The notes: a model not told the origin generated them from the letters alone. A DNA stretch of 64,000 nt from Peptococcia bacterium (GCA_050951605.1 JBMNJJ010000009.1:36-64035); one strand, 5' to 3'. Counted from the first letter of the stretch, positions 3,590 to 15,317 are shown. Made by a program: numbers and translations.

Positions 3590-4129
3590 GTGGAGGGTTT
3601 GACGAGTGAGCAGGAACTACAGCTGGTAAAACAAGCGCAAAATGAAATAGCGGCATTTAGCAAACTGTATCAGTTATATCTGCCCAAACTTTATAATTAT
3701 GCATTTTATCGAACCGGAAGTAAACAGGAAGCCGAGGATGTTGTCTCTTCGACATTTATAAAGGCATTGGAACATTTAAAAAAGGGAGAAATAAAATATA
3801 TTTCCTTCAAGAATTGGCTGTATAAGGTGTGTTCTAATATCATTATCGATAATTGGCGCAAGAGTTCCTATGCCGAATGTGCTTTACCCTGTTGTTTTGA
3901 CAACAATGATGTAGACTTTTCTGGGAAAATTGATGATAAGCTAACAATCCTACAAATACTTTACCAACTAACCGAAGAACAGCAACAGGTATTACTTTTG
4001 AGATATGTCCAGGATTTAAGTATTTGTCAGGTGGCGGAAATCATGGGGAAGTCCGAAGGCGCTGTTAAACAGCTGGCTTATAGAGGATTAAATAATATGA
4101 AGGAAAGGATGGCGAAAAGTAATGGATAA
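3590..4129 (+). CDS. ECF family RNA polymerase sigma factor
   Basis: AEDVVSSTFIKA region 2, FKNWLYKV, region 4 LSICQVAEIMGKSEGAVK. Confidence 0.92.
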   Translation: MEGLTSEQELQLVKQAQNEIAAFSKLYQLYLPKLYNYAFYRTGSKQEAEDVVSSTFIKALEHLKKGEIKYISFKNWLYKVCSNIIIDNWRKSSYAECALPCCFDNNDVDFSGKIDDKLTILQILYQLTEEQQQVLLLRYVQDLSICQVAEIMGKSEGAVKQLAYRGLNNMKERMAKSNG

Positions 4130-6113
4130 TCAGGAAAAGGATTTTTTAGAGTTGGAACTTGATATAGGCAAGAGATTGGGTAATTTAACAGATGTCCAAG
4201 TGGATGAAGAGTTTAAAAATAGGCTTTGGGAAGAGCTAAAATTCAAATATGAGGAAGCGGATTCTGTCAAGGCTAATAAAATTTATAATATTGATACTGT
4301 GAACCGAAAGAAGAAAGGCTTGTTTATTAAGTGGGGGGCTATTGCCGCGGCTGTTTTACTAGTGATTACTTTTTTACCTTTAAGAAAAACCAATGATGTC
4401 GAAATGAGCTCACTGCTTTCCCCAACGCAGGTATTTGCTATTGGGGGTAGTGATTTAGCTCTTGATGCGGGGTTTGATACCCTTAGGGATGTGCGGTTTG
4501 AAGTTAAAGGGGATTTGCCTACTGCACCGCCAAAAGGTCAGATATTCCGTTTGCAAAGTAAATTCACTACAGTTGATGATTATCTCCTTATGGCCAAGAC
4601 CATGGGCATGAAAAACCCTGAGATAATGGGTAAAGAGTCGCAGGAATCAGTAAGTCAATTTTTTTCTATAATAAGTGGGAAGCATTATCTTATGGTCTGG
4701 CCCAAAAGTGGGGTCTGGGAGTATGAATATAGGGACTATGAATTTGATGAGCTGGATAGTGATTTAGAAGAGGGTAATATCAAAGAAAATGTGGAAGATG
4801 CTCAAAAGATTGAACAGGAAATGGCCAAAGATATAGCTAAAGAATGGTTAAAAAGGTTGGAGCAACTCCCTCGTGAGAAGTATAAAATAACCGTTGAAGA
4901 TACAAGGAATAGCGATATTCCTGTGGCTTTGGGATTTAACGTTATGTTTATCCCTGAATCTAGTCCGGATGCAAACCAATCAGTTGAAACAGGCAGGCGG
5001 ATTCGGATATTCATGGGTACTGATGGTCAAGTAATAAATGCTTCTTATAATTGGCCGGGGCTAAAAGGGACTTCCGAAATCCCTCTGGCTGATTACGTCG
5101 AAGCCATAGAAGCCTTAAACCGCGGTGAAGGAAGATTAGATGTCAAAAGATATTGGGGCGAAAAAGGTGTTGCCTCTATTGAAGATGTAGAGATTGGCCA
5201 TCAACTGGCCTACGGCATAGATTATACTCCTTATCTTGTGCCTACCTGTATATTTTCAGGAAAGCTTACTTTACAAGGGTCAACCCAAGATTTTACTGCC
5301 TCAATTCCTTTGCTAAAAAAACCCGAAATGAAAAATGCCGCGAATTTTGCAATCAAAACAAAGCTTCCCAAGTATCGAAAAGAGGCTAATTTAATAGCTG
5401 AAAGACAACATAGCTTAACTCAAGCAGAACTTGAAAGCCTTGCTTCATTTTTTGGTATAGAGAAAAAAAGTCAAGAGGAAAATTTTATCGAGGGTACAAA
5501 AGGGGAAGAGCTTCACTACACCTCTTATGACTATGGCTGGCTTTATCGCGGGCAAAAGCATACCACAGCAAAACAACTGTCTGAAGAAAAAGCCATTCAA
5601 ATCGCTCAAAACATTGCCAATAACATACCGGTTGTTCCCGGGTCTCTGGGAAAGCCGTGGATACTTCCTACGGGTGGAGAAGAACTTCAGACGATAGGTT
5701 TCCCTTTCATCTATGAAGGCATACCGGTAGTTACTCCTAGTTACCCCGGTTATGTATCTTATATTGCGATCAGTCTATACAAGGACGGTACATTGTGGTC
5801 AGTAGATAGTAAGATGCCTATGGAAGCCACGGGGGAAAAAATTAAATTGATATCCCCGCAAGAGGCTAAACAAAGGCTATTAGAAAATGATTATATTATG
5901 ACCATTGATAATTTGTTTGGATATTTTTATGGCGACAGATTTGCGGCTGACAAATCGACAGTAACTGAAATTGAACTTGTATATATCCCTTGTCATCCTG
6001 AGCTTGCCAGAAGTAAGGACTATGCTTTGATGTACAGATTTTCCGGTAAAACAATCATCTCCGGAAATGAGATGGACTTTTCAGCCTTTGTAAAAGCGCA
6101 AAAAGAATATTAA
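4122..6113 (+). CDS. Putative anti-sigma factor with one TM helix and large, internally duplicated extracellular region
   Basis: Overlaps sigma stop; short cytoplasmic N-terminus, TM (WGAIAAAVLLVITFLPL), two similar ~300-aa halves. Confidence 0.6.
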   Translation: MDNQEKDFLELELDIGKRLGNLTDVQVDEEFKNRLWEELKFKYEEADSVKANKIYNIDTVNRKKKGLFIKWGAIAAAVLLVITFLPLRKTNDVEMSSLLSPTQVFAIGGSDLALDAGFDTLRDVRFEVKGDLPTAPPKGQIFRLQSKFTTVDDYLLMAKTMGMKNPEIMGKESQESVSQFFSIISGKHYLMVWPKSGVWEYEYRDYEFDELDSDLEEGNIKENVEDAQKIEQEMAKDIAKEWLKRLEQLPREKYKITVEDTRNSDIPVALGFNVMFIPESSPDANQSVETGRRIRIFMGTDGQVINASYNWPGLKGTSEIPLADYVEAIEALNRGEGRLDVKRYWGEKGVASIEDVEIGHQLAYGIDYTPYLVPTCIFSGKLTLQGSTQDFTASIPLLKKPEMKNAANFAIKTKLPKYRKEANLIAERQHSLTQAELESLASFFGIEKKSQEENFIEGTKGEELHYTSYDYGWLYRGQKHTTAKQLSEEKAIQIAQNIANNIPVVPGSLGKPWILPTGGEELQTIGFPFIYEGIPVVTPSYPGYVSYIAISLYKDGTLWSVDSKMPMEATGEKIKLISPQEAKQRLLENDYIMTIDNLFGYFYGDRFAADKSTVTEIELVYIPCHPELARSKDYALMYRFSGKTIISGNEMDFSAFVKAQKEY

Positions 6114-6232: not shown

Positions 6233-6724
6233 TTATTGAGGATTATACATCCCCTTGTTTTGCATATAGTTAAAAATTTGTTCTCCATGTTCTTGTTCTT
6301 CTTTTTGAATATGATTTAATATTTGCCGAACATTAGTATCGGTACATTCAAAAATTGTCGTGTCATAAGTTCCAGAAACATATTTTTCTGTTGTGAGCAT
6401 ATCAGTACACAAGGTAGTATCGTTTTGATTAGCCATAGTTCCCAGCATTTGTGTTTGTTGATTTTGTTGTATTTGTTGACCAAATTGGGGCATTTGTTGT
6501 CCGGCTTGCTGACTTTGTTGGATATTGGGAACTTGACCGGTTAGAATTTGATTAATCGTATTCAAGTGTTCTTGTTCTTTTTGGGCTAAAGAGCTGAAGA
6601 GTTGTTTTAATTGTGGGTCTTGTGCTTGCTTAGCATAATTTTGATATTTTTGGATACAAAGTTCTTCATGAGCTTTTTGGTCTTGCAGAAGCATTTTTTC
6701 CTTGGTCGTTAATTTTAGTGCCAA
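6233..6724 (-). CDS. Ferritin-like/CotF-type spore coat protein (TTG start after GGAGGTGG)
   Basis: LT.KE..LL.D....EELC..KY, Gln-rich linker, DML.TEKYVS..Y, HIQKEEQEHG. Confidence 0.8.
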   Translation of the reverse strand: MALKLTTKEKMLLQDQKAHEELCIQKYQNYAKQAQDPQLKQLFSSLAQKEQEHLNTINQILTGQVPNIQQSQQAGQQMPQFGQQIQQNQQTQMLGTMANQNDTTLCTDMLTTEKYVSGTYDTTIFECTDTNVRQILNHIQKEEQEHGEQIFNYMQNKGMYNPQ

Positions 6725-6853
6725 GATGACCACCTCCACTATAATTTTGCCATGATTGGGGGCTTTATATTCAAGAAACGCTATTATTGCAAAGAAGTTC
6801 ACAATAAAGGATAATAAATAGGGAAGAAGAATCTGAGCACAATAAAAAAAGGG

Positions 6854-7721
6854 GTGATTTATAAATTGAAAAGAATACTTGTACTGGTTGCTTGTTTATG
6901 TGTTTTTACAGGTTGTGCAAATATAGAAAGAACTCAGCAATTAAGTGAAAAAGCTAAAACGATGATTAATGAAAAGGGGATGACGATCAGCGAGAGAATA
7001 AACGTACCTGAGGGATATTCTAGAATAGAGGTAGAGAATAATTCATTCGCCGAGTACTTGCGCAATTTGCCTTTAAAAGAACATCAGGCGAAAGTTTTAT
7101 ATTACAATGGTAAGGTAAAAGAAAACTTTGGGGTATATGAAGCAGTTGTGGATATGGAGATCGGAACCAAAAATTTACAGCAATGTGCTGATGCGGTGAT
7201 GAGGCTAAGGGGAGAATATCTGTATCAACAAAAGAAGTGGGATCAAATTCATTTTAATTTAACAAACGGGTTTAGGGTTGATTATCGTAAATGGATGCAG
7301 GGCTATAGGGTAGTTGTAGATGGGAATAAAACTTATTGGGCAAAGAAAAGCCCAGAGCTTAACTCCTATGAAACTTTCAGGAATTATATGGAGTTTGTTT
7401 TTATCTATGCCGGGACGTTGTCTCTGTCCCAAGAGCTTCAATCTGTAAAATTAGAAGAGATGCAGATAGGAGATGTACTTATTCAAGGGGGAAGTCCCGG
7501 ACATGCAGTTATTGTAGTAGATATGGCTGAGAATCAAGAAACAGGGAGAAAAGCTTTATCTGCTAGCACAAAGTTATATGCCTGCTCAGGAAATACAGCT
7601 TCTGGCCAATCCGGACAATAGGAAGATCAGTCCGTGGTATATTTTAAGTACGGATGAAAAAATACATACACCGGAATGGGTCTTTACTAAAGATGATTTA
7701 ATGAGGTTTTTTAATCAGTAA
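6854..7721 (+). CDS. DUF4846-like lipoprotein, frameshift near 7545
   Basis: Lipobox FTGC; LQQCADAVMRLRGEY, YAGTLSL, GGSPGHAV; the family C-terminus LLAQSYMPAQEI..SPWY..TPEW continues in another frame. Confidence 0.8.
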
Positions 7722-7726
7722 CCCCT

Positions 7727-7757
7727 GGCCACCACAAAAATGTGGTGGTCTTTTTTG
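7727..7757 (+). terminator. Intrinsic terminator
   Basis: ggccaccaca-aaaa-tgtggtggtc followed by tttttt. Confidence 0.75.
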
Positions 7758-7954: not shown

Positions 7955-8437
7955 ATGGAGGACTTGACAAAACTATTTTCGGAAGAACAAATAAAAGAAT
8001 TAGATAAGCTTATTGAAACAAATGGGAAAGAGTCGAAAGGGTTAATTCCTTTACTGGAAAAAGCACAAGAGCTATTAGGTTATATCCCCGTTGAGGTGCA
8101 AAAAAGGATTGCTGAAAAAACAGGAATCCCTGCCAACAGCATCTATGGTGTGGTTTCTTTTTATTCATTTTTTACCATGGAAGCCAGAGCACGTCATCGT
8201 ATTCAGGTTTGCTTAGGGACTGCTTGTTATGTTAAAGGCGGTAAAGAAATAATGGAAAAAATAGAAAAAGATTATGGTCTCAAAGTTGGCGAAAGTAGTA
8301 AAGACGGCAGATTTACCTGTGAAAAGGCGAGATGCTTTGGAGCCTGTGGTCTTGCTCCGATTATGGTCGTTGATGGCAAGGTGTACGGAAAAATCAGTGT
8401 AGAAAATGTTGATGAAATTTTGAGTCAATATAAGTAA
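7955..8437 (+). CDS. NuoE/HydC-like [2Fe-2S] subunit
   Basis: GVVSFYSFF, VCLGTACYVKG, RCFGACGLAP. Confidence 0.92.
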   Translation: MEDLTKLFSEEQIKELDKLIETNGKESKGLIPLLEKAQELLGYIPVEVQKRIAEKTGIPANSIYGVVSFYSFFTMEARARHRIQVCLGTACYVKGGKEIMEKIEKDYGLKVGESSKDGRFTCEKARCFGACGLAPIMVVDGKVYGKISVENVDEILSQYK

Positions 8438-8463
8438 AAAATAAGGGGTAAGGAGGAAGCGTC

Positions 8464-10180
8464 ATGCGTGGTAAAACGATTGAGGAGATCAATCAGATTA
8501 AGGAAAAGGCATTAAAAGAAAATGAGCTACAAAGTAATTTTACCAAAGTATATGTCCACACGGGTACTTGTGGAATTGCCTCCGGTGCTTTAGAAGTTTT
8601 AAATACGTTAAAAAAAGAAATAAAAGAGAATGGTTTAAAAAACATTAAGGTCATAACTACCGGCTGTGCCGGGATATGTTCTAAGGAACCTCTTCTTACT
8701 GTTGAGGTTCCGGGGCAGGAGCCGATCATTTATGAAAAGATAAATGAAGAAAAAGCACGTGAGATTTTTAATAGTCATCTTGTGGGGAAAAAAGTTGTGC
8801 CGGAATATGCTTTTGCCAGAGGAATGGAAGTACAAATCAAAGAGAGAATCAAAAACAACGGTAAAATGCCGAGGCAGGCGGTTGTTGATGAGCGTATTCC
8901 CGGCATTGAGGAGATTCCTTTTTTTAAACTGCAAGAACAAAGGGTAATGAGAAATAGAGGGCTGATTGACCCTAAGAAAATAAATGATTATATTGCCAGA
9001 GACGGCTATCAAGGAGCGATTAAAGCTTTAACCGCAGATGACCTCTGCAGAAATAATCACTGAAGTTTTAGATGCGGGAATCAGAGGTAGAGGAGGAGCA
9101 GGTTTCCCTACAGGCTTAAAGTGGAAATTCGCGGCTCAGGAAGAAAACGAGATAAAATATGTTTTATGTAATGCTGATGAAGGGGACCCGGGTGCTTACA
9201 TGGACAGGAGCGTACTGGAAAGTGACCCTCATAGTGTAATTGAAGGCATGATTATTGCCGCCAAAGCTATCGGTTCTCATATGGGCTATATTTATTGCCG
9301 GGCAGAATATCCACTTGCCGTGGAAACACTGAATAGAGCCATAAAAAGTGCTAGGAATTATGGTTTATTAGGAAAAAACATTTTAGGTACCGGATTTGAT
9401 TTTGACCTTGAAGTTTATGAAGGCGCCGGTGCTTTTGTCTGTGGTGAGGAAACAGCATTGATGAGGTCTCTTGAAGGTTTAAGAGGAAACCCCAGACCGA
9501 AGCCACCCTTCCCTGCCCATGCGGGACTCTGGGAAAAGCCGACGATCCTCAATAATGTAGAAACTTTTGCTAATATTCCTCAGATTATGGCCAAGGGTAG
9601 TGAATGGTTTGCCGGTATCGGAACGGAAAAAAGTAAAGGGACCAAAATATTTTCCCTTACGGGAGATATTAATAATGTGGGCTGTGTGGAAGTGCCCATT
9701 GGTACTACTTTAAACACCATCGTCAATGAAATAGGTGGTGGGGTACTGACCGGTAAACATTTTAAAGCGGCGCAACTGGGAGGACCTTCCGGAGGTTGTA
9801 TCCCTGTCCAACATATAGATGTGGCTGTAGATTATGAAACATTACAGGAGTACGGGGCCATAATGGGCTCAGGTGGTTTAATTGTCATCAGTGATGATAA
9901 ATCCGCAGTAGATATTGCTAGATTTTTTATGGAATTTTGTCAAGATGAATCTTGTGGTAAATGTATTCCGTGTCGTGAAGGAACTAAACAAATGCTGCAT
10001 ATTCTAAATAAAATTTGTGCCGGAAAAGCACAAAAAGAAGACCTGGATAAAATGGAAGAATTAGGTTATGTGATTCAAAAAACGGCTTTATGTGCCCTTG
10101 GTAAAACATCAGTCAACCCCGTTTTGAGTACGTTGCGTTATTTTAGAAATGAATATGAAGAAGCTATTGCTAAAAATTAA
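8464..10180 (+). CDS. NuoF/HydB-like FMN/NADH-binding subunit with N-terminal thioredoxin-like [2Fe-2S] domain; frameshift at ~9035
   Basis: GTCG..TGCAGIC in 8464-9063; RGRGGAGFPTG, NADEGDPG, CGEETAL, GGPSGG, SCGKCIPCREG..CALG in 9038-10180. Confidence 0.9.
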
Positions 10181-10189
10181 TTTAAAGAG

Positions 10190-10684
10190 GTGTGCTTGAT
10201 GATCTTTACAAAGGCTTTAAAATATGAGGATATCAAAAAAGAATTAGATAAAGAGCACGATATTATTACTATTTTTGGGTGTGAAACTTGTGTCAGAGTG
10301 GCCGGAAGTGGTGGGGAAGAAAAAATGAAAGAGTTGGCCTTGAAATTAAGGAGTGAAGGCTTCCAGGTTGTGGATGGTTTTATGATTCCGGCTGTCTGTA
10401 CTCCTAAAATCTTCTTGGCGAAATTAAATAAAGATGTAAATACTTTAATAGCATTGGCCTGCAGTGCCGGATTTGCTAATCTGCAAAGGTCTTATCCTGA
10501 ATATAAAGTAGTGGAGACTACGGAAAATATAGGCTTAATGGTTACCGACACAGAAAAAAATATTATTAAGGTAACGATACCTTATAAAAACCATGAAGAT
10601 GAAGTAGGGCAAGAGTATGACTGTGAGACAGGAAAGAAAAGAAAGAGTAAGCAGGGCTTGCCCATAATGGAGGTGGAAAAATAA
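10190..10684 (+). CDS. Small Cys-rich protein resembling the MetV N-terminal Fe-S domain
   Basis: GCETC..GG..(C)..LAC..G spacing recalls the N-terminal half of MetV; no MetV C-terminal Cys cluster. Confidence 0.55.
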   Translation: MCLMIFTKALKYEDIKKELDKEHDIITIFGCETCVRVAGSGGEEKMKELALKLRSEGFQVVDGFMIPAVCTPKIFLAKLNKDVNTLIALACSAGFANLQRSYPEYKVVETTENIGLMVTDTEKNIIKVTIPYKNHEDEVGQEYDCETGKKRKSKQGLPIMEVEK

Positions 10685-11899
10685 ATGATTATCTCACTCC
10701 GTGCCTTAAGCTATGCTGACTTAAAGAAACAAATAGCAGCGGACGATAAAGTGGTAATTATTAGCTGTAATACTTGTGTCAAGGCTTGTGGAGTTGGCGG
10801 AAGGCAAAATATGAGTACACTGGAAAAGATGTTAAAGGCAGACGGGTATACGGTTTTAGGGAAAGATTTAATCAGCATTGGCTGTACTTTAAACCTTGTT
10901 GAAAGACACAGACAGGACCCTAAAAAGAAAGAGATGTATGAGGCGGCTACAGTAATCATTCCGTTGATTTGTGAAGATGGTCTAAAAGCTGTGCAAGCCG
11001 TTTTTAGAGATAAAAAGGTTATTCCCATCGCTAAAACTTTAGGGACAGGAAACTTTACAATGGAGAGGGGTGTGGTTTTGACTCATCCTTTTGAAAGTAC
11101 AGGATTAGCAAAAAATCTTGAAGGATATGACCTGTCCGAAGTTGCTGAAACCCTTAATTTATATGAATATTTCTTTGATGAAGATGAGGCGGCGGCACAG
11201 GAAGAAGAATATGTTACCGTGACTATTAATGGTGAACAGGTAACTGCTTTAAAAGGGCAAAATTTATTAGAACTTTGTTTGGAAAATGATATTAATGTTC
11301 CTCACCTTTGTTATGACCCGGAATTATCAGAGGCGGGAGCATGTAGGTTATGTTTGGTAAAAATAAAGGGCAGAAGAGACCTTACGCCTTCCTGTTGTAC
11401 ACATGTGGAAGAAGGAATGGAAATTATAACAGAGGATGAAGAACTTTATAACTGCAGACGTGTAATTTTGGAATTGGCCATGTCTTCCAAACATCATAAT
11501 TGTCTTACTTGTTCCAAAGGAGTTCCTACACAGATTGGTAGTTGTGACTTTCAATCTCTGATTAGAAGTTTTGGCATTGAAAAAAGCAGGTATGAAGAAA
11601 ATAAAGAAGAGGTACCGGTTGACAACTCCAGCCCTGTCATTGCTTATGACCCTAATAAATGTGTTTTATGTGGACGTTGTGTACGTGCTTGTGAAGAAAT
11701 TGCCGGACAAGGTAATTTAGGGTTTATCAATAGAGGGCCGGAAACAGTAGTGGCGGCAGGACTTAATGTTAAAATGAAACAAAGTGACTGTGCCGCTTGT
11801 ATGGCTTGTGTTAACGTATGTCCCACCGGTGCGTTAACAGAAAAAGTACTTCATTTTAGAGGCAAGGACTGGAAACCAACTAAAGTATATTGTGGCTAA
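10685..11899 (+). CDS. MetV-N-like domain fused to NuoG/HydA-type Fe-S relay with no catalytic domain
   Basis: N-term SCNTC..CG.GG..GC..IC; then VPHLC..GACRLC..SC [2Fe-2S], H..CLTC..CDFQ, KCVLCGRCVRAC, CAACMACVNVCPTGAL; stops 18 aa later. Confidence 0.8.
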   Translation: MIISLRALSYADLKKQIAADDKVVIISCNTCVKACGVGGRQNMSTLEKMLKADGYTVLGKDLISIGCTLNLVERHRQDPKKKEMYEAATVIIPLICEDGLKAVQAVFRDKKVIPIAKTLGTGNFTMERGVVLTHPFESTGLAKNLEGYDLSEVAETLNLYEYFFDEDEAAAQEEEYVTVTINGEQVTALKGQNLLELCLENDINVPHLCYDPELSEAGACRLCLVKIKGRRDLTPSCCTHVEEGMEIITEDEELYNCRRVILELAMSSKHHNCLTCSKGVPTQIGSCDFQSLIRSFGIEKSRYEENKEEVPVDNSSPVIAYDPNKCVLCGRCVRACEEIAGQGNLGFINRGPETVVAAGLNVKMKQSDCAACMACVNVCPTGALTEKVLHFRGKDWKPTKVYCG

Positions 11900-11910
11900 A
11901 GTTGACCCAA

Positions 11911-11950
11911 GAAAAAGGCTGTGTGAAAGTTTGCGTACACAGCCTTTTTT
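11911..11950. terminator. Bidirectional terminator
   Basis: aaaaaggctgtgt...acacagcctttttt between convergent operons. Confidence 0.8.
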
Positions 11951-11968: not shown

Positions 11969-12985
11969 TTAAAACAAGGTTAAAATATCTTCATAGATCT
12001 GTTTTTCTTCCTCGGGTGGCTGGAGCGAACTGATAACTTGTTTAATGTTTTGGGTTTTGAATTTTACTCCCGGCAAAACAGCTGTAAGTTTGTCTACAAA
12101 AGAGGTATAAAGTGCATCTGAATATATTTTAACCTTATGGATATAACCATTTTTTAAATTTAAACCTATTTGTATTTCACCCCAGGAAAATCTTTGTTCA
12201 TAAGACACATCAAAAGCAGGACTCTCTCCGTAGGTCCAGGACCAGGAAGAGTATTTTTTATATATTGGAGCGAAAGTAGCACCCAGAAGATGGTCTGTAG
12301 CCATATTTTCAGTAAACTTATGGGAGTTTGCAGTTTTGCCATAAAGTTGCTCAAAACAGTTAAAAATGCTTAATTTTACTTTATCAACAGTAATCTCACG
12401 CTTAACAGAATGGAGATTAATAACTCTGGACTTTACAGAATCGATACCTTTGGAAATGATTTTTTCCTTGGAAGGTTGCAGATACTCTGAAAGTTTAGAT
12501 AGATCGGAGTTGATAAGTATGGTGCCGTGGTGGTATGCTGCTTCGTCTTCAAAGTAATAGGCATTGCCGGAAAACTTTTTTCCCTTCAATAAGAGGTCAT
12601 TTCTTCCGGAGAATTTAGCCTTAAGACCAAAAGAATTAACGGCTTGGAGAATAACAGTTAGCTGTTTTTTGAGGTCATAAAGCTCTTTTCTCATAATAAA
12701 TGTAAAATTTAAATTACCCAAGTCGTGATAAACAGCTCCACCGCCGGATAATCTTCTAGCCAGTTTAACTCCTTCATGACTCATTTTGTTAATTTTACAT
12801 TCTTGCCAGGGGTTTTGATTTCTACCGATCACCACGGTATTTTTGTTTTGCCAAAGATACAAGATTACTTCATTTGCAGTAACATTGTCTAAAAGAAATT
12901 CTTCCAGGGCTAAATTAAACCAGGGGTTAAAACTTGTGGAGGTAACAAAGGTATTATTCTGAGCTTTCAATCTTAGCCAGGACAT
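11969..12985 (-). CDS. lplA: Lipoate-protein ligase A
   Basis: NLALEE, VVIGRNQNPW, RRLSGGGAVYHDLGN, GRNDL..GKKFSGNA, HHGT. Confidence 0.93.
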   Translation of the reverse strand: MSWLRLKAQNNTFVTSTSFNPWFNLALEEFLLDNVTANEVILYLWQNKNTVVIGRNQNPWQECKINKMSHEGVKLARRLSGGGAVYHDLGNLNFTFIMRKELYDLKKQLTVILQAVNSFGLKAKFSGRNDLLLKGKKFSGNAYYFEDEAAYHHGTILINSDLSKLSEYLQPSKEKIISKGIDSVKSRVINLHSVKREITVDKVKLSIFNCFEQLYGKTANSHKFTENMATDHLLGATFAPIYKKYSSWSWTYGESPAFDVSYEQRFSWGEIQIGLNLKNGYIHKVKIYSDALYTSFVDKLTAVLPGVKFKTQNIKQVISSLQPPEEEKQIYEDILTLF

Positions 12986-13196
12986 CTCCTATTTTAACTT
13001 TATCACCTTCAGAAACAACGATTTCGCTTATCGTGCCGTTAACTTTGGCTTTTATAGGAGTATTTCCTTTACCGGCTTCAATTTGACAAATCTTATCACC
13101 TATTTTCACTGTGTCGCCGACTTTTTTGGCGATTTTACCAACTTTACCTTCTTTTACATTGCCGTTTAATTTGTCAACTGTAATATCAGTAGTCAT
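12954..13196 (-). CDS. Stand-alone lipoyl/biotinyl carrier domain protein
   Basis: GD.VK.GD....IEAGKG...IKA...G.I..I.V.EGD.V..GD.L pattern with the conserved Lys. Confidence 0.85.
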   Translation of the reverse strand: MTTDITVDKLNGNVKEGKVGKIAKKVGDTVKIGDKICQIEAGKGNTPIKAKVNGTISEIVVSEGDKVKIGDVLAKIESSE

Positions 13197-13232: not shown

Positions 13233-13598
13233 TTATTGGAAGTCTTGTTCGAATTCATCAAGACTGTCTTTGAGCAAGGTAACAGTATAGGCCATTGCCG
13301 GTCCGCCACCGAAGGCTACGGAGACCATAGCAGCATCAAGAATTTCATCACGTGTGGCGCCGGCTTCAAGAGCTTTGTAAGTATGGTAAACTATGCAATA
13401 GACACATCTGTTATAAATAGCGATACCTACACTGATTAATTCTTTAGTTTTAGTATCTAAAGCATTGTCTTGATAAACGGTACCCAATAAGTTCATAAAA
13501 GCTCCAACGGCGTCTTGTGTTGATTCACCTAGATTTTGCAGTCCTCCTGTAAAGGCATTTAACATTTCTCTTGGATTATTAGCCATAACTTTACACAT
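13233..13598 (-). CDS. Carboxymuconolactone decarboxylase/AhpD-like protein with CxxC
   Basis: ALDTKTKELI, CVYCIVYH, AGATRDEI, GGGPA. Confidence 0.88.
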   Translation of the reverse strand: MCKVMANNPREMLNAFTGGLQNLGESTQDAVGAFMNLLGTVYQDNALDTKTKELISVGIAIYNRCVYCIVYHTYKALEAGATRDEILDAAMVSVAFGGGPAMAYTVTLLKDSLDEFEQDFQ

Positions 13599-13669: not shown

Positions 13670-13873
13670 AAAACTCCTACAAAGGTGCGTGTTGCTCTTT
13701 TGGTAAGAGTTTTAATTTTGGGGAGTAGTTGTTTTTTATTTTACGGAAGAGGTTGCGGATAAGGTTCACAATATTGTTTACGTATGCTATAGTAAAAAAT
13801 AAAAGGTAATGAAGTTTACCTTTTAAGCTAATGACTCTTACAAAGGTGTGTCGCTCTTTTTGTAGGAGTTTTA
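13670..13873. repeat. Two copies of a ~40-bp imperfect palindrome in a divergent intergenic region
   Basis: actcctacaaaggtgcgtgttgctcttttggtaagagtttta (13673-13714) and actcttacaaaggtgtgtcgctctttttgtaggagtttta (13834-13873). Confidence 0.75.
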
Positions 13874-13899
13874 GTTTTACTTGCTGGGAGGCGTTGATA

Positions 13900-14556
13900 G
13901 TGGCTTTATTGGAATTGCAAAATGTATCATACCAAAATGAAAATAAAAGCATTCTCAAAAATATATCATTACAAATAGATGCGGGTGATTATCTTTCTAT
14001 TATAGGACCTTCGGGTAGTGGCAAAAGTACATTTTTGAAGCTTTGTGCTCATTTGTTAAGTCCTACGGAAGGAAAGATTTTCTTTAAGGGGAAAGACTTT
14101 AGAGAATATAACCCGTTAGAGTTAAGGAGAAAGATTGGTTACTGTGCACAAACACCTTGTTTGTTTGGGGATACAGTGGAAGACAATCTTTCTTTCCCTT
14201 ATTTAATAAGGAAGCAAAAAGTTGACTTAGCTAGAGTAGAAGCATTGTTTTCTAGTTTTAATCTGGACTTTGAATTTATGAAAAAGGATGTACAAAGTCT
14301 TTCCGGTGGTGAAAAACAGAGAATCGCTTTAATTAGAACATTGTTATTTAAACCGGAAATTCTTCTTTTAGATGAAGTAAGTTCAGCATTAGATGTTGCG
14401 AATACTTTATTTGTGGAAAAAGTCATTAGTTCCTTAAACAAAACAGGTACCACCGTTTTATGGATAACTCATGACTTAGAACAGAGTAGAAAGTATGCTC
14501 ATAAATTATTAACACTTGAAAATGGTGAAATCAAAGCATGGGAGGTTTTAAGATGA
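13900..14556 (+). CDS. fetA: ABC transporter ATP-binding protein, FetA/YbbL-like
   Basis: GPSGSGKST, LSGGEKQR, LLLDE, WITHD; GTG start after GGGAGG. Confidence 0.85.
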   Translation: MALLELQNVSYQNENKSILKNISLQIDAGDYLSIIGPSGSGKSTFLKLCAHLLSPTEGKIFFKGKDFREYNPLELRRKIGYCAQTPCLFGDTVEDNLSFPYLIRKQKVDLARVEALFSSFNLDFEFMKKDVQSLSGGEKQRIALIRTLLFKPEILLLDEVSSALDVANTLFVEKVISSLNKTGTTVLWITHDLEQSRKYAHKLLTLENGEIKAWEVLR

Positions 14557-15317
14557 ATTCAGGGGCGGCGATTAGTATATCTTCTCTTTTTATGGCGTCT
14601 TCACTGGTGGTAGTTTCTCTTTTGTTTTCTTATTTTCAAAAATTAGGGTTGGAAAAAGAAACGTTAATCAGTGTGGGGAGAGCTATTATTCAGCTCATTA
14701 TTGTAGGTTATATTCTTGAATATGTTTTCGGACAGCATAGTCCTGTGTTCACAACTTTACTACTTGTTTTTATGACCTTTAATGCTGCCTATAATGCGGC
14801 TAAAAGAGGGAAGAGGATTAGGAATGGTTTATTGATTTCTTTTGTTTCTATAGCCCTAGGAGCAATTATTACTTTATCTGTGCTTTTGTTATCCGGAGCG
14901 ATACAATATGAGCCGTTTCAAATCATTCCCATTGGGGGCATGATTATCAGTAATGCCATGATAGCCTTAGGACTTTGTTACCGGCGCTTGACTTCTGATT
15001 TTAAAGATAAAAGAGAAGAAGTAGAAGCAAAATTAGCTTTAGGAGCAGATATTTTACCAGCATCTTTGGAGATAATTAGGGATGCTATTCGTACGGGAAT
15101 GTTACCTATGATTGATTCGGCTAAGACTTTGGGAATTGTTGCTTTGCCCGGTATGATGACCGGGCTTATTTTAGCGGGAGTGTCCCCCGTAATGGCTATT
15201 CGTTATCAGATTATGGTTACTTTTATGATGCTATCGACCACGGCGATTGCTTCTTTTATGGCTTGCTATTTAGCTTATCGAACTTTCTTTAACCAGAGGA
15301 AACAGCTGATTAATTGA
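14553..15317 (+). CDS. fetB: Iron export ABC permease FetB/YbbM
   Basis: RAIIQL..VGYIL, IIPIGGMIISNAM, KTLGIVALPGMMTGLILAG. Confidence 0.9.
   Translation: MNSGAAISISSLFMASSLVVVSLLFSYFQKLGLEKETLISVGRAIIQLIIVGYILEYVFGQHSPVFTTLLLVFMTFNAAYNAAKRGKRIRNGLLISFVSIALGAIITLSVLLLSGAIQYEPFQIIPIGGMIISNAMIALGLCYRRLTSDFKDKREEVEAKLALGADILPASLEIIRDAIRTGMLPMIDSAKTLGIVALPGMMTGLILAGVSPVMAIRYQIMVTFMMLSTTAIASFMACYLAYRTFFNQRKQLIN

Follow-up and report, generated by a model that had tools for sequence, protein, structure and literature searches.

We describe a compact four-gene operon on the + strand (7955-11899) of a 64,000-nt stretch of DNA from Peptococcia bacterium (GCA_050951605.1 JBMNJJ010000009.1:36-64035), which we call the window and in which positions are counted from the first letter. 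Read from table-11 open reading frames (ORFs) and the sequence, the operon encodes a NuoE-like subunit (E), a NuoF/HydB-like subunit (F), a small free cysteine-rich protein (X), and a longer protein (X'-wire) in which a second domain of the same kind, X', is fused to an iron-sulfur (Fe-S) wire. Profile comparison shows both X and X' to be homologous to the N-terminal half of MetV. Next to the operon, in the window and in a number of related loci, lie genes for an AhpD-like CxxC protein, a small lipoyl carrier and the lipoate-protein ligase LplA. We tentatively propose, at somewhat less than even confidence, that the module is an NADH-driven Fe-S reductase of the lipoyl carrier that feeds an AhpD-type thiol relay. 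The hypothesis concerns seven small genes, and all functional statements made here rest on homology and gene neighbourhood. If it is true, the widespread NuoEF/Bfu/Hox family would gain a new output module, the MetV-N-type Cys4 pair, and strict anaerobes would have an Fe-S system, in place of lipoamide dehydrogenase, that keeps a lipoyl carrier and an AhpD relay reduced. Moreover, the operon provides a second, independent genomic context for the uncharacterised N-terminal half of MetV, which bears on the electron donor of MetVF in acetogens.

The module and its MetV-type domains

The first gene (7955..8437, +) encodes a 160-aa thioredoxin-like [2Fe-2S] subunit of the NuoE/HoxE/BfuC type (PF01257, 159 bits), whose best NCBIfam matches are the HoxE and NuoE models, under their equivalog cut-offs. 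The second (8464..10180, +) encodes the NuoF/HydB/BfuB-like FMN/NADH subunit (PF01512, SLBB and PF10589). Its N-terminus is a thioredoxin-like domain, with weak PF01257 and 2Fe-2S ferredoxin matches, and after its N3-type [4Fe-4S] cluster it ends in ...EYEEAIAKN, with no C-terminal 2x[4Fe-4S] domain. This agrees with the original prediction, a note made from the sequence of the window alone, which had described a NuoE/HydC followed by a NuoF/HydB that stops after the N3 cluster. X, a free 161-aa MetV-N-type alpha/beta Cys4 subunit known from 62 homologs with invariant cysteines, is encoded at 10199..10684 (+). A GTG at 10190 is doubtful as its start because the homologs begin MIFTK, and is probably not used. 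The last gene (10685..11899, +) encodes the 404-aa X'-wire protein, delimited by Pfam and NCBIfam scans and by its paralogy to X. Its residues 1 to ~170 form the second MetV-N-type Cys4 domain, X', which is a paralog of X (25% identity, E 8e-15). Residues ~176-387, the best Pfam and NCBIfam stretches, hold a Fer2_4 [2Fe-2S] domain, NADH-G_4Fe-4S_3 (His/Cys [4Fe-4S]) and two 4Fe-4S motifs. Domain models and sequence matches to solved structures liken this C-terminal part to HoxU and to the N-termini of HydA and NuoG, and the Pfam and NCBIfam scans found no H-cluster, molybdopterin or other catalytic domain in the X'-wire protein. The two tandem Cys-rich domains of the original prediction, the second fused to a HydA/NuoG wire lacking a catalytic domain, are thus confirmed by the domain scans and the paralogy. 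Behind the operon, a hairpin flanked by A and T runs (11911..11950, no strand assigned; -23 kcal/mol, z -3.97, with 1 of 200 shuffles folding as well) bears out the terminator that had been placed there, and is likely a bidirectional terminator between convergent operons. Owing to its 10-nt loop it escaped a simple terminator scan and was revealed by folding.

Neither X nor X' alone matches a Pfam or NCBIfam family, even at E <= 10, and the 62 relatives of X (45-83% identity) are all unnamed or 'hypothetical', save one with the UniRef label DUF1847. The invariant cysteines are C28, C31, C67 and C88 in X (alignment A1, 21 relatives) and C28, C31, C67 and C96 in X' (alignment A4, 12 X'-wire proteins); an additional Cys35 in the X' of the window is not conserved in A4. 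MetV genes were fetched through PF12225 (DUF5981) from genomes of the same class, 5 of 61 of which carry that family, and the resulting set A3 combined three stand-alone MetV proteins with the MetV portion of one MetV-RnfC fusion. Compared with hhalign, the X profile matched the MetV profile at 95.8% (E 7.6e-9, 103 columns), with X 1-106 aligned on MetV 1-108 and the four cysteines in register, and the X' profile matched it at 97.1% (E 7.5e-11, 119 columns). X and X' give no MetV match in Pfam because the PF12225 model spans the C-terminal half of MetV only; PF12225 itself was found neither in X or X' (E <= 10) nor anywhere in the genome.

An exhaustive hidden Markov model (HMM) search with A1 among 1.84 billion representatives yielded 246 proteins at E <= 0.001, 59 of them at E <= 1e-10. 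We scanned the 30 listed matches of 185-265 aa, with 10 other matches alongside. In 21 of the 30, PF12225 lies directly behind the X-like stretch (20 above the Pfam cut-off), and by this domain order these matches are MetV proteins. The remaining ones are seven proteins without a family, one cut X'-wire protein and one X-HycI fusion. The fusion (P0202, 252 aa), which was unexpected, joins a MetV-N-type domain to a HycI hydrogenase maturation protease domain. A word-index search for longer fused forms of X gave none, and the exhaustive search later gave MetV, X'-wire and this single fusion. The sequence evidence thus upholds the MetV likeness that had been predicted for the Cys-rich domains, and it can be located: the N-terminal ~105-120 residues of MetV, with the pattern CxxC...C...C, are homologous to X and X'. 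In contrast to MetV, X and X' lack the PF12225 half, occur as a free-plus-fused pair on a NuoEF core and do not lie beside MetF. X and X' each probably hold an Fe-S cluster.

The AlphaFold2 model of X (pLDDT 89, pTM 0.82) is a Rossmann-like alpha/beta domain. In the comparison with MetV that had been suggested for 10190-10684 and the X' region, the profiles match the N-terminal half of MetV, and Foldseek found no match to the X model in PDB at E <= 0.001. A wide VIA-align search with the model returned generic Rossmann-like periplasmic-binding-protein lobes only (best Z 9.8), which are uninformative on function, and ESM Atlas returned unnamed clusters and one PF12225-containing cluster at 0.79, a lead only. 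A search of PDB sequences with the X profile gave a chance match (E 0.8), which was discarded. No solved MetV structure surfaced in the sequence or fold searches with X.

The predicted NuoF/HydB gene stands as regards its domains, but in the window it is not a single gene: it consists of two overlapping ORFs, 8464-9063 and 9038-10180, one frame apart, where relatives have one ORF of 571-576 aa. Alignment (window ...AIKALTAD|, relatives ...KALTSMTS...) indicates one extra base near 9037, and the ATG at 9038 corresponds to a conserved Met. We compared Logan contigs from four public runs (X1, X2, X7 and X8) of four studies (bioreactor, digester, landfill) over 8464-10684. The extra base is absent from all five contigs that span the site, which come from three runs and have one base fewer at 9033, 9035 or 9037: two contigs in run X1 (depth 10.7 + 12 of 22.7), two in X2 (17.1 + 23.2 of 40.3) and one in X8 (6.51 of 6.51), run X7 having no cover at 9033-9037. 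Because none of the public contigs has the extra base, the break reflects either a mistake in the assembly or a mutation private to this genome, not a property of the gene, and the NuoF-like gene is probably intact in nature, that is, in the sampled populations. Runs X1 and X2 each also contain two allelic 118-nt contigs at 8973-9091, which differ at 9003, 9049 and 9061; this strain-level bubble coincides with the site of the extra base.

Conservation and comparison with Bfu, Hyd and Hox enzymes

The synteny search proposed in the original prediction proved productive: the order E-F-X-X'wire recurs in 20 loci of a species-representative genome collection and, with some contigs shared between the two sets, in 22 metagenome loci. 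Near-duplicate loci are included in several of our counts, and related genomes are non-independent samples. The carriers include Tissierellales, Peptostreptococcaceae, Lachnospiraceae and other Clostridia, Sphaerochaetaceae and other Spirochaetia, as well as Bacteroidales, Desulfobacterales, Pseudomonadota and Herpetosiphon records. Across phyla, all four proteins are 45-88% identical, with invariant cluster ligands. The X'-wire protein has 378-417 aa and the same end point in 16 of 16 complete loci, and the genes downstream of it differ between loci. No hydrogenase, formate dehydrogenase (FDH) or other catalytic gene is conserved beside the module in any locus examined. The original prediction had allowed for a truncated operon whose homologs continue into such catalytic domains; since the module recurs with the same lengths in 16 complete loci of several phyla, this comparison indicates that it is not a truncated hydrogenase or FDH. 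In keeping with the prediction that the module is undescribed, no published description of it was found in the literature searched, an incomplete library that includes parts of two papers in which MetV is mentioned along with NuoE/F.

Of the 17 genome loci with an F gene, 13 carry it as one ORF of 570-587 aa (570-576 aa in 12 of these). In L018, L020 and L021 the F protein is longer, at 621-649 aa, and includes a C-terminal ferredoxin domain; that of L012 has 494 aa. In the subtype of the window, F ends after the N3-cluster domain and X has ~160 aa; in the subtype found in Bacteroidales, Pseudomonadota and the distant locus L078, F keeps the C-terminal 2x[4Fe-4S] domain (621-709 aa) and X has ~137 aa. 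The MetV-like domains had been said to stand 'in place of' the C-terminal ferredoxin domain of HydB, a statement that does not hold in general, as L018, L020 and L078 have both. In the Epulonipiscium-type loci (L012:6497-7978 and L070:6886-8367), the FMN domain of the NuoF-like protein (494 aa) is matched in two separate parts, and the X'-wire protein is 378 aa long; the module may be in decay here.

The closest solved relatives of F are the bifurcating HydB/BfuB subunits (7t2r_B, E 3e-181, compared with 1.5e-110 for Thermus Nqo1; also 7q4v_B), which supports the resemblance to bifurcating-type HydB noted at the outset. The best solved matches of the X'-wire protein are HydA N-termini, and the last ~70 residues of solved HydB are unmatched by the F of the window. 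Set against BfuABC, the module has the BfuC/NuoE-like [2Fe-2S] subunit and the FMN/NADH site and B1 (N3-type) [4Fe-4S] cluster of BfuB (PF01257, PF01512, PF10589). It lacks the B3/B4 C-terminal 2x[4Fe-4S] pair in the F of the window and in its 571-576-aa relatives, only the distant L018, L020 and L078 having that domain, and it has neither a third-substrate catalytic domain in the X'-wire protein nor extra catalytic subunits. As far as the available parts of the Bfu papers go, the C-terminal B3/B4 clusters are the route to ferredoxin in the solved enzymes (PMC11829005), the C-terminal 2x[4Fe-4S] domain is treated as part of every true bifurcating member, and non-bifurcating Bfu homologs lack the extra clusters (PMC9304861; PMC11829005). 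Because its F has no B3/B4 domain, the subtype of the window is, judged by its domains, one without the known ferredoxin arm. Set against HoxEFU, the module scores 159.9 bits with the HoxE model (cut-off 224) and 189.3 with the HoxU model (cut-off 333), and no NiFe hydrogenase genes (HoxYH) were found in the module loci scanned.

What the module shares with BfuABC/HydABC and HoxEFU is thus a NuoE-like [2Fe-2S] subunit, a NuoF-like FMN/NADH subunit with an N-terminal thioredoxin-like domain, and a HoxU/NuoG-N-type wire. Unlike these enzymes, it has no H-cluster, NiFe, pterin, FAD or other catalytic part in the operon or conserved beside it, and it has two MetV-N-type domains, which occur in no described Bfu or Hox enzyme; the window type further differs from BfuABC in lacking the C-terminal 2x[4Fe-4S] domain of BfuB. 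Taken together, the four + strand genes would encode a soluble, NADH-oxidising Fe-S flavoprotein complex built on a NuoE/NuoF (BfuC/BfuB, HoxE/HoxF) core.

Lipoyl and AhpD neighbours and a proposed electron path

Convergent with the operon, three genes follow on the - strand of the window. The first encodes LplA (11969..12985, -; 338 aa; PF21948 and PF10437; TIGR00545 370 bits, cut-off 280), the second a stand-alone lipoyl-domain carrier of 80 aa (12957..13196, -; Biotin_lipoyl domain, with an invariant Lys in E-x-x-K-G-N-T), and the third an AhpD-family core-domain protein of the CMD fold (13233..13598, -; PF02627; TIGR00778 57.7 bits, cut-off 27.8). The translated ORF of the last contains the motif C-V-Y-C-I-V-Y-H (CVYCIVYH), a CxxCxxxH that we take to be the AhpD active-site pattern. 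The adjacent LplA, together with the similarity of the carrier to the lipoyl domains of fused dihydrolipoyl dehydrogenases (Lpd) described below, suggests that the carrier is lipoylated rather than biotinylated. A partner among these adjacent genes had not been considered in the original prediction, and their conservation next to the module points to a partner encoded next door.

We searched for this trio beside the module by tblastn with the proteins of the window. It adjoins the module in 9 of the 20 genome loci (L002, L004-L008, L010, L011 and L014) and in 9 of the 22 metagenome loci (L061, L062, L064-L068, L075 and L081). Of the latter, L065 and L067 are contigs of L010 and L011, and the type of L061/L062 matches L004-L008; many of the trio-negative loci are contigs of 1-5 kb. 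The trio occurs in four arrangements: upstream on the same strand, divergent, split (AhpD and carrier upstream, LplA downstream; L011), and convergent downstream (the window and L064). Genomes with trio and module include Clostridia of several families and Sphaerochaetaceae. Across the trio loci the AhpD-like protein is 68-77% identical, more conserved than X. The type of F without the C-terminal ferredoxin domain is the one that occurs with the trio, and the type that keeps this domain was seen in trio-less loci.

The AhpD-like gene also occurs apart from the module. Close orthologs (68-100% identity) were found in four genomes of the class, with 11 of 88 matching at E <= 1e-10, and a sample of 401 genomes from the phylum contained them in 9 (E <= 1e-35). 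Twelve loci with such an ortholog lack the module, and eight of them (L036, L037, L040, L041, L042, L044, L046 and L049) encode a lipoyl-domain-fused Lpd right next to the AhpD-like gene. This fused protein has the architecture Biotin_lipoyl + Pyr_redox_2 + Pyr_redox_dim, and the two that were checked score 560 and 565 bits with TIGR01350 (cut-off 408.8). LplA follows in four of these eight loci (L040, L041, L042 and L049), and 8 of the 12 module-less loci have a MarR-family gene ahead of the AhpD-like one; in the other four loci without a fused Lpd (L039, L043, L045 and L047) the AhpD-like gene stands alone or with MarR. Searches of the 20 module loci and of the whole 64-kb window found no Lpd or MarR homolog, and the free lipoyl carrier shares 36-55% identity with the lipoyl domain at the N-terminus of the fused Lpds. 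In one further genome of the class (G005), the trio lies on one contig and the module on its own 5.8-kb contig. The simplest reading of these neighbourhoods is an operon-level displacement: where the module is present, the Lpd part would be gone, with its lipoyl domain surviving as a free protein. No paper on the MarR-AhpD-lipoylLpd-LplA operon was found in the literature searched, which is an incomplete library.

We propose that electrons would take the following path. NADH would reduce the FMN of the NuoF-like subunit, from which single electrons would pass through the N3-type cluster and the HoxU-like [2Fe-2S]/[4Fe-4S] wire to the X'/X pair. Fused X' and free X would form the output end of the complex and would reduce the lipoyl disulfide of the 80-aa carrier, lipoylated by the adjacent LplA. 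The dihydrolipoyl carrier would in turn reduce the CxxC of the adjacent AhpD-like protein, and the outcome would be an NADH-driven relay for thiol or peroxide defence in which the Fe-S module takes the role that Lpd has in the commoner MarR-AhpD-(lipoyl-Lpd)-LplA operons. The domain architecture, the MetV-N homology, the conservation of the module, the intact frame in the sampled populations and the synteny with its operon-level displacement are shown by the data; we infer the binding of clusters by X and X', the formation of the complex, NADH as donor, the carrier as acceptor and the direction of flow; the lipoyl acceptor is proposed for the genome of the window and its closest relatives. HdrB-type enzymes split a disulfide between two clusters, and since the module always has its two paralogous Cys4 domains, the delivery of two single electrons by the X/X' pair to the lipoyl disulfide is likened to them, by analogy only. 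The last two steps would follow the model of the NADH-Lpd-lipoyl protein-AhpD-AhpC peroxidase relay that reportedly operates in Mycobacterium tuberculosis. That relay and the MarR-AhpD-(lipoyl-Lpd)-LplA operons, which were found in other Bacillota-type genomes, both pair a CxxC protein of the AhpD family with a lipoylated domain, NADH being the likely ultimate donor, and the latter operons share a dedicated LplA with the trio. In contrast to both, Lpd would here be replaced at the operon level by a four-subunit Fe-S flavoprotein, and the lipoyl domain is a free 80-aa protein; a further difference from M. tuberculosis is that no AhpC-type peroxiredoxin was found in the genome of the window.

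A second parallel is the sHdr-LbpA system of sulfur oxidation, in which, according to the part of PMC6067878 available, a small lipoate-binding protein and its ligase likewise accompany an Fe-S complex outside 2-oxoacid dehydrogenases and glycine cleavage. It differs in having HdrABC-like subunits with CCG domains, where the module has NuoEF/HoxU/MetV-N components, and in the chemistry and direction that are proposed for it (PMC6067878). As for MetVF, the available part of PMC8760232 describes its physiological donor as unresolved, notes that lpdA lies beside metVF and that gcvH genes are present, and speculates on energetic grounds about a lipoic-acid-binding partner. The occurrence of MetV-N-type domains beside a dedicated lipoyl carrier may be taken as an independent, weak hint in that direction. 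It is tempting to go further and regard MetV-N-type Cys4 domains as exchanging electrons with protein-bound lipoate, with X/X' as a two-cluster lipoyl-disulfide reductase that has no flavin-disulfide site, but we hold this to be quite improbable. If it were true, a dihydrolipoyl protein could by extension be the physiological electron partner, long sought, of the MetVF-type methylene-THF reductases of acetogens.

Several observations weigh against the lipoyl carrier as the acceptor. The alignments of X and X' contain no extra redox-active Cys pair and no second flavin was seen, so that a disulfide-reducing site is not evident. The module occurs without the trio on long flanks (L012/L070, L013, L015, L016, L020/L079, L021 and L078), and four of five trio-less module genomes, which are metagenome-assembled genomes of unknown completeness, have no AhpD-like ortholog at E <= 1e-10. 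The complete Oceanirhabdus genome (L013/G480) holds the module and, ~0.95 Mb away, a separate MarR-AhpD-lipoylLpd-LplA operon. Furthermore, Lpd-like proteins that could reduce the carrier are encoded elsewhere in all six module-plus-trio genomes tested, including that of the window. In this 99.6%-complete genome no AhpC-type peroxiredoxin (PF00578) was found, in a search that matched 14 of 14 control genomes and left other peroxidase families aside. Also, X occurs in 2 of the 88 genomes of the GTDB class of the window, namely its own and G005 from another genus, and is absent from the two same-genus genomes searched (95% and 88% complete); because it is missing from the latter, the module, judged by its distribution, is accessory. 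A complex prediction of X'(1-172), X and the lipoyl carrier (score 0.00, mark 0.32) speaks neither for nor against binding.

Alternative readings and other genes in the window

The trio-less loci and the Oceanirhabdus genome, in which the module coexists with a complete Lpd-type operon, would also be expected if the module were a general NADH:ferredoxin/flavodoxin oxidoreductase or a portable 'diaphorase'. Its MetV-N-type domains would then feed a soluble carrier or a distant partner, such as an orphan [FeFe]-hydrogenase-like protein, and the AhpD/lipoyl adjacency would reflect co-regulation or co-transfer, not direct electron transfer. We consider this possible, if rather unlikely. It fits the kinship of F with the ferredoxin-linked bifurcating HydB/BfuB, and the distant members retain the C-terminal 2x[4Fe-4S] domain, which in the available part of PMC11829005 is the site of ferredoxin reduction in solved Bfu. 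In addition, MetVF takes electrons from reduced ferredoxin in vitro, according to the part of PMC8760232 available, and MetV-N could be a ferredoxin-facing cluster. The genome of the window has five [FeFe]-hydrogenase-like genes, only two of which adjoin NuoF-like genes of their own. In contrast, the window type lacks the B3/B4 domain that forms the ferredoxin route in solved Bfu (PMC11829005, as above), and no catalytic gene is conserved beside the module in any locus. Co-transfer alone would be insufficient, because the trio occurs in four arrangements and in at least two phyla, and because the Lpd part is lacking precisely where the module occurs. Even on this ordinary reading, a diaphorase-like module with an unknown partner, the module would remain a conserved and rare family, with 246 representatives among 1.84 billion. 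At L059:2999-7310 (G000 contig C2, ~5-8 kb from MetF), beside CheW and HATPase genes, lie the genes of two [FeFe]-hydrogenase-like proteins that carry PF04060 Fe-S domains; one of these proteins is fused to an MCP signalling domain, and by sequence the pair look like sensory hydrogenase-type chemoreceptors.

In the distant locus L078, the gene just before the module, in the same orientation, encodes an Lpd-like flavoprotein disulfide reductase of 457 aa, and ~2 kb farther upstream lies a catalase-peroxidase; though a single case, this locus stays with the theme of our main proposal. An ArsR-rhodanese fusion (L016 4833-5468) lies upstream of a trio-less module, and a rhodanese gene with TauE (L036 in G041, 6339-7505) lies beside an Lpd-type AhpD operon. 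The rhodanese neighbours hint at reactive-sulfur rather than peroxide stress, and the module might, instead of acting on the lipoyl carrier, assist a thiol enzyme (a flavoprotein disulfide reductase or some other) under sulfur or persulfide stress, for example by supplying low-potential electrons to an Lpd-like or rhodanese-linked system, with the L078 reductase, the ArsR-rhodanese gene and the G041 sister operon all in its favor. Yet these are single loci whose neighbours are not conserved, and no such reductase occurs in the trio-type loci, which makes this explanation quite unlikely.

MetF, or methylene-THF reductase, had been put forward originally as a possible partner of the MetV-like domains, in which case the module would resemble the RnfC2-MetV-MetF enzymes with NuoEF in place of RnfC2. 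The homology of X and X' to the N-terminal half of MetV agrees with this, as does the presence of MetF in a genome that has no PF12225-type MetV. A precedent for a MetV joined to an NADH module exists in the same class, in a 656-aa fusion of MetV to an RnfC-like protein encoded beside FolD (L023, G057:C28, 148-2118, -). This protein would be the fused form of an RnfC2-MetV-MetF type reductase, to judge by its domains; G057 also holds a separate RnfC-like gene and a stand-alone MetV and MetF (L027). However, X and X' lack the Cys-rich PF12225 half common to all MetV sequences examined, and the one MetF of the genome stands alone on a different contig, flanked by genes for an M42 peptidase and a YlbF-like protein. 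Moreover, no MTHFR was found among 118 ORFs from 10 related loci around the module, and the absence of the module from same-genus genomes misfits a core role in one-carbon metabolism. The suggestion of MetF has therefore not stood up, and we regard it as very unlikely.

A decaying or truncated hydrogenase or FDH operon, that is, a pseudogene, to which the frameshifted NuoF-like gene of the window, the absence from same-genus genomes and the shortened F (494 aa) of L012/L070 might point, was rejected once the public contigs had restored the frame (five of five spanning contigs) and is scarcely credible, being largely refuted by four proteins that stay 45-88% identical across phyla with invariant cluster ligands and by an X'-wire protein with one and the same end point in 16 of 16 complete loci.

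Upstream of the operon, a domain scan identified a DUF4846 gene (6854-7621), which is closed by a terminator-like hairpin with a 10-bp stem and a T-run (7727..7750, +; terminator scan); the AT-rich leader of the operon begins after this hairpin. A Coat_F/rubrerythrin-like protein is encoded at 6233-6802 (-). Further upstream, at 3590-6113 (+), an ECF-type sigma factor gene is followed by an overlapping gene for a 663-aa protein without a Pfam family, possibly an anti-sigma factor. A gene pair at 13831-15317 (+), beyond the trio and transcribed away from the AhpD-like gene, encodes an ABC ATPase (PF00005) and a UPF0014 permease. This pair presumably resembles the FetAB/YbbLM-type iron exporter, which we take to be linked to peroxide stress in E. 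coli, and if so it would fit an oxidative-stress neighbourhood.

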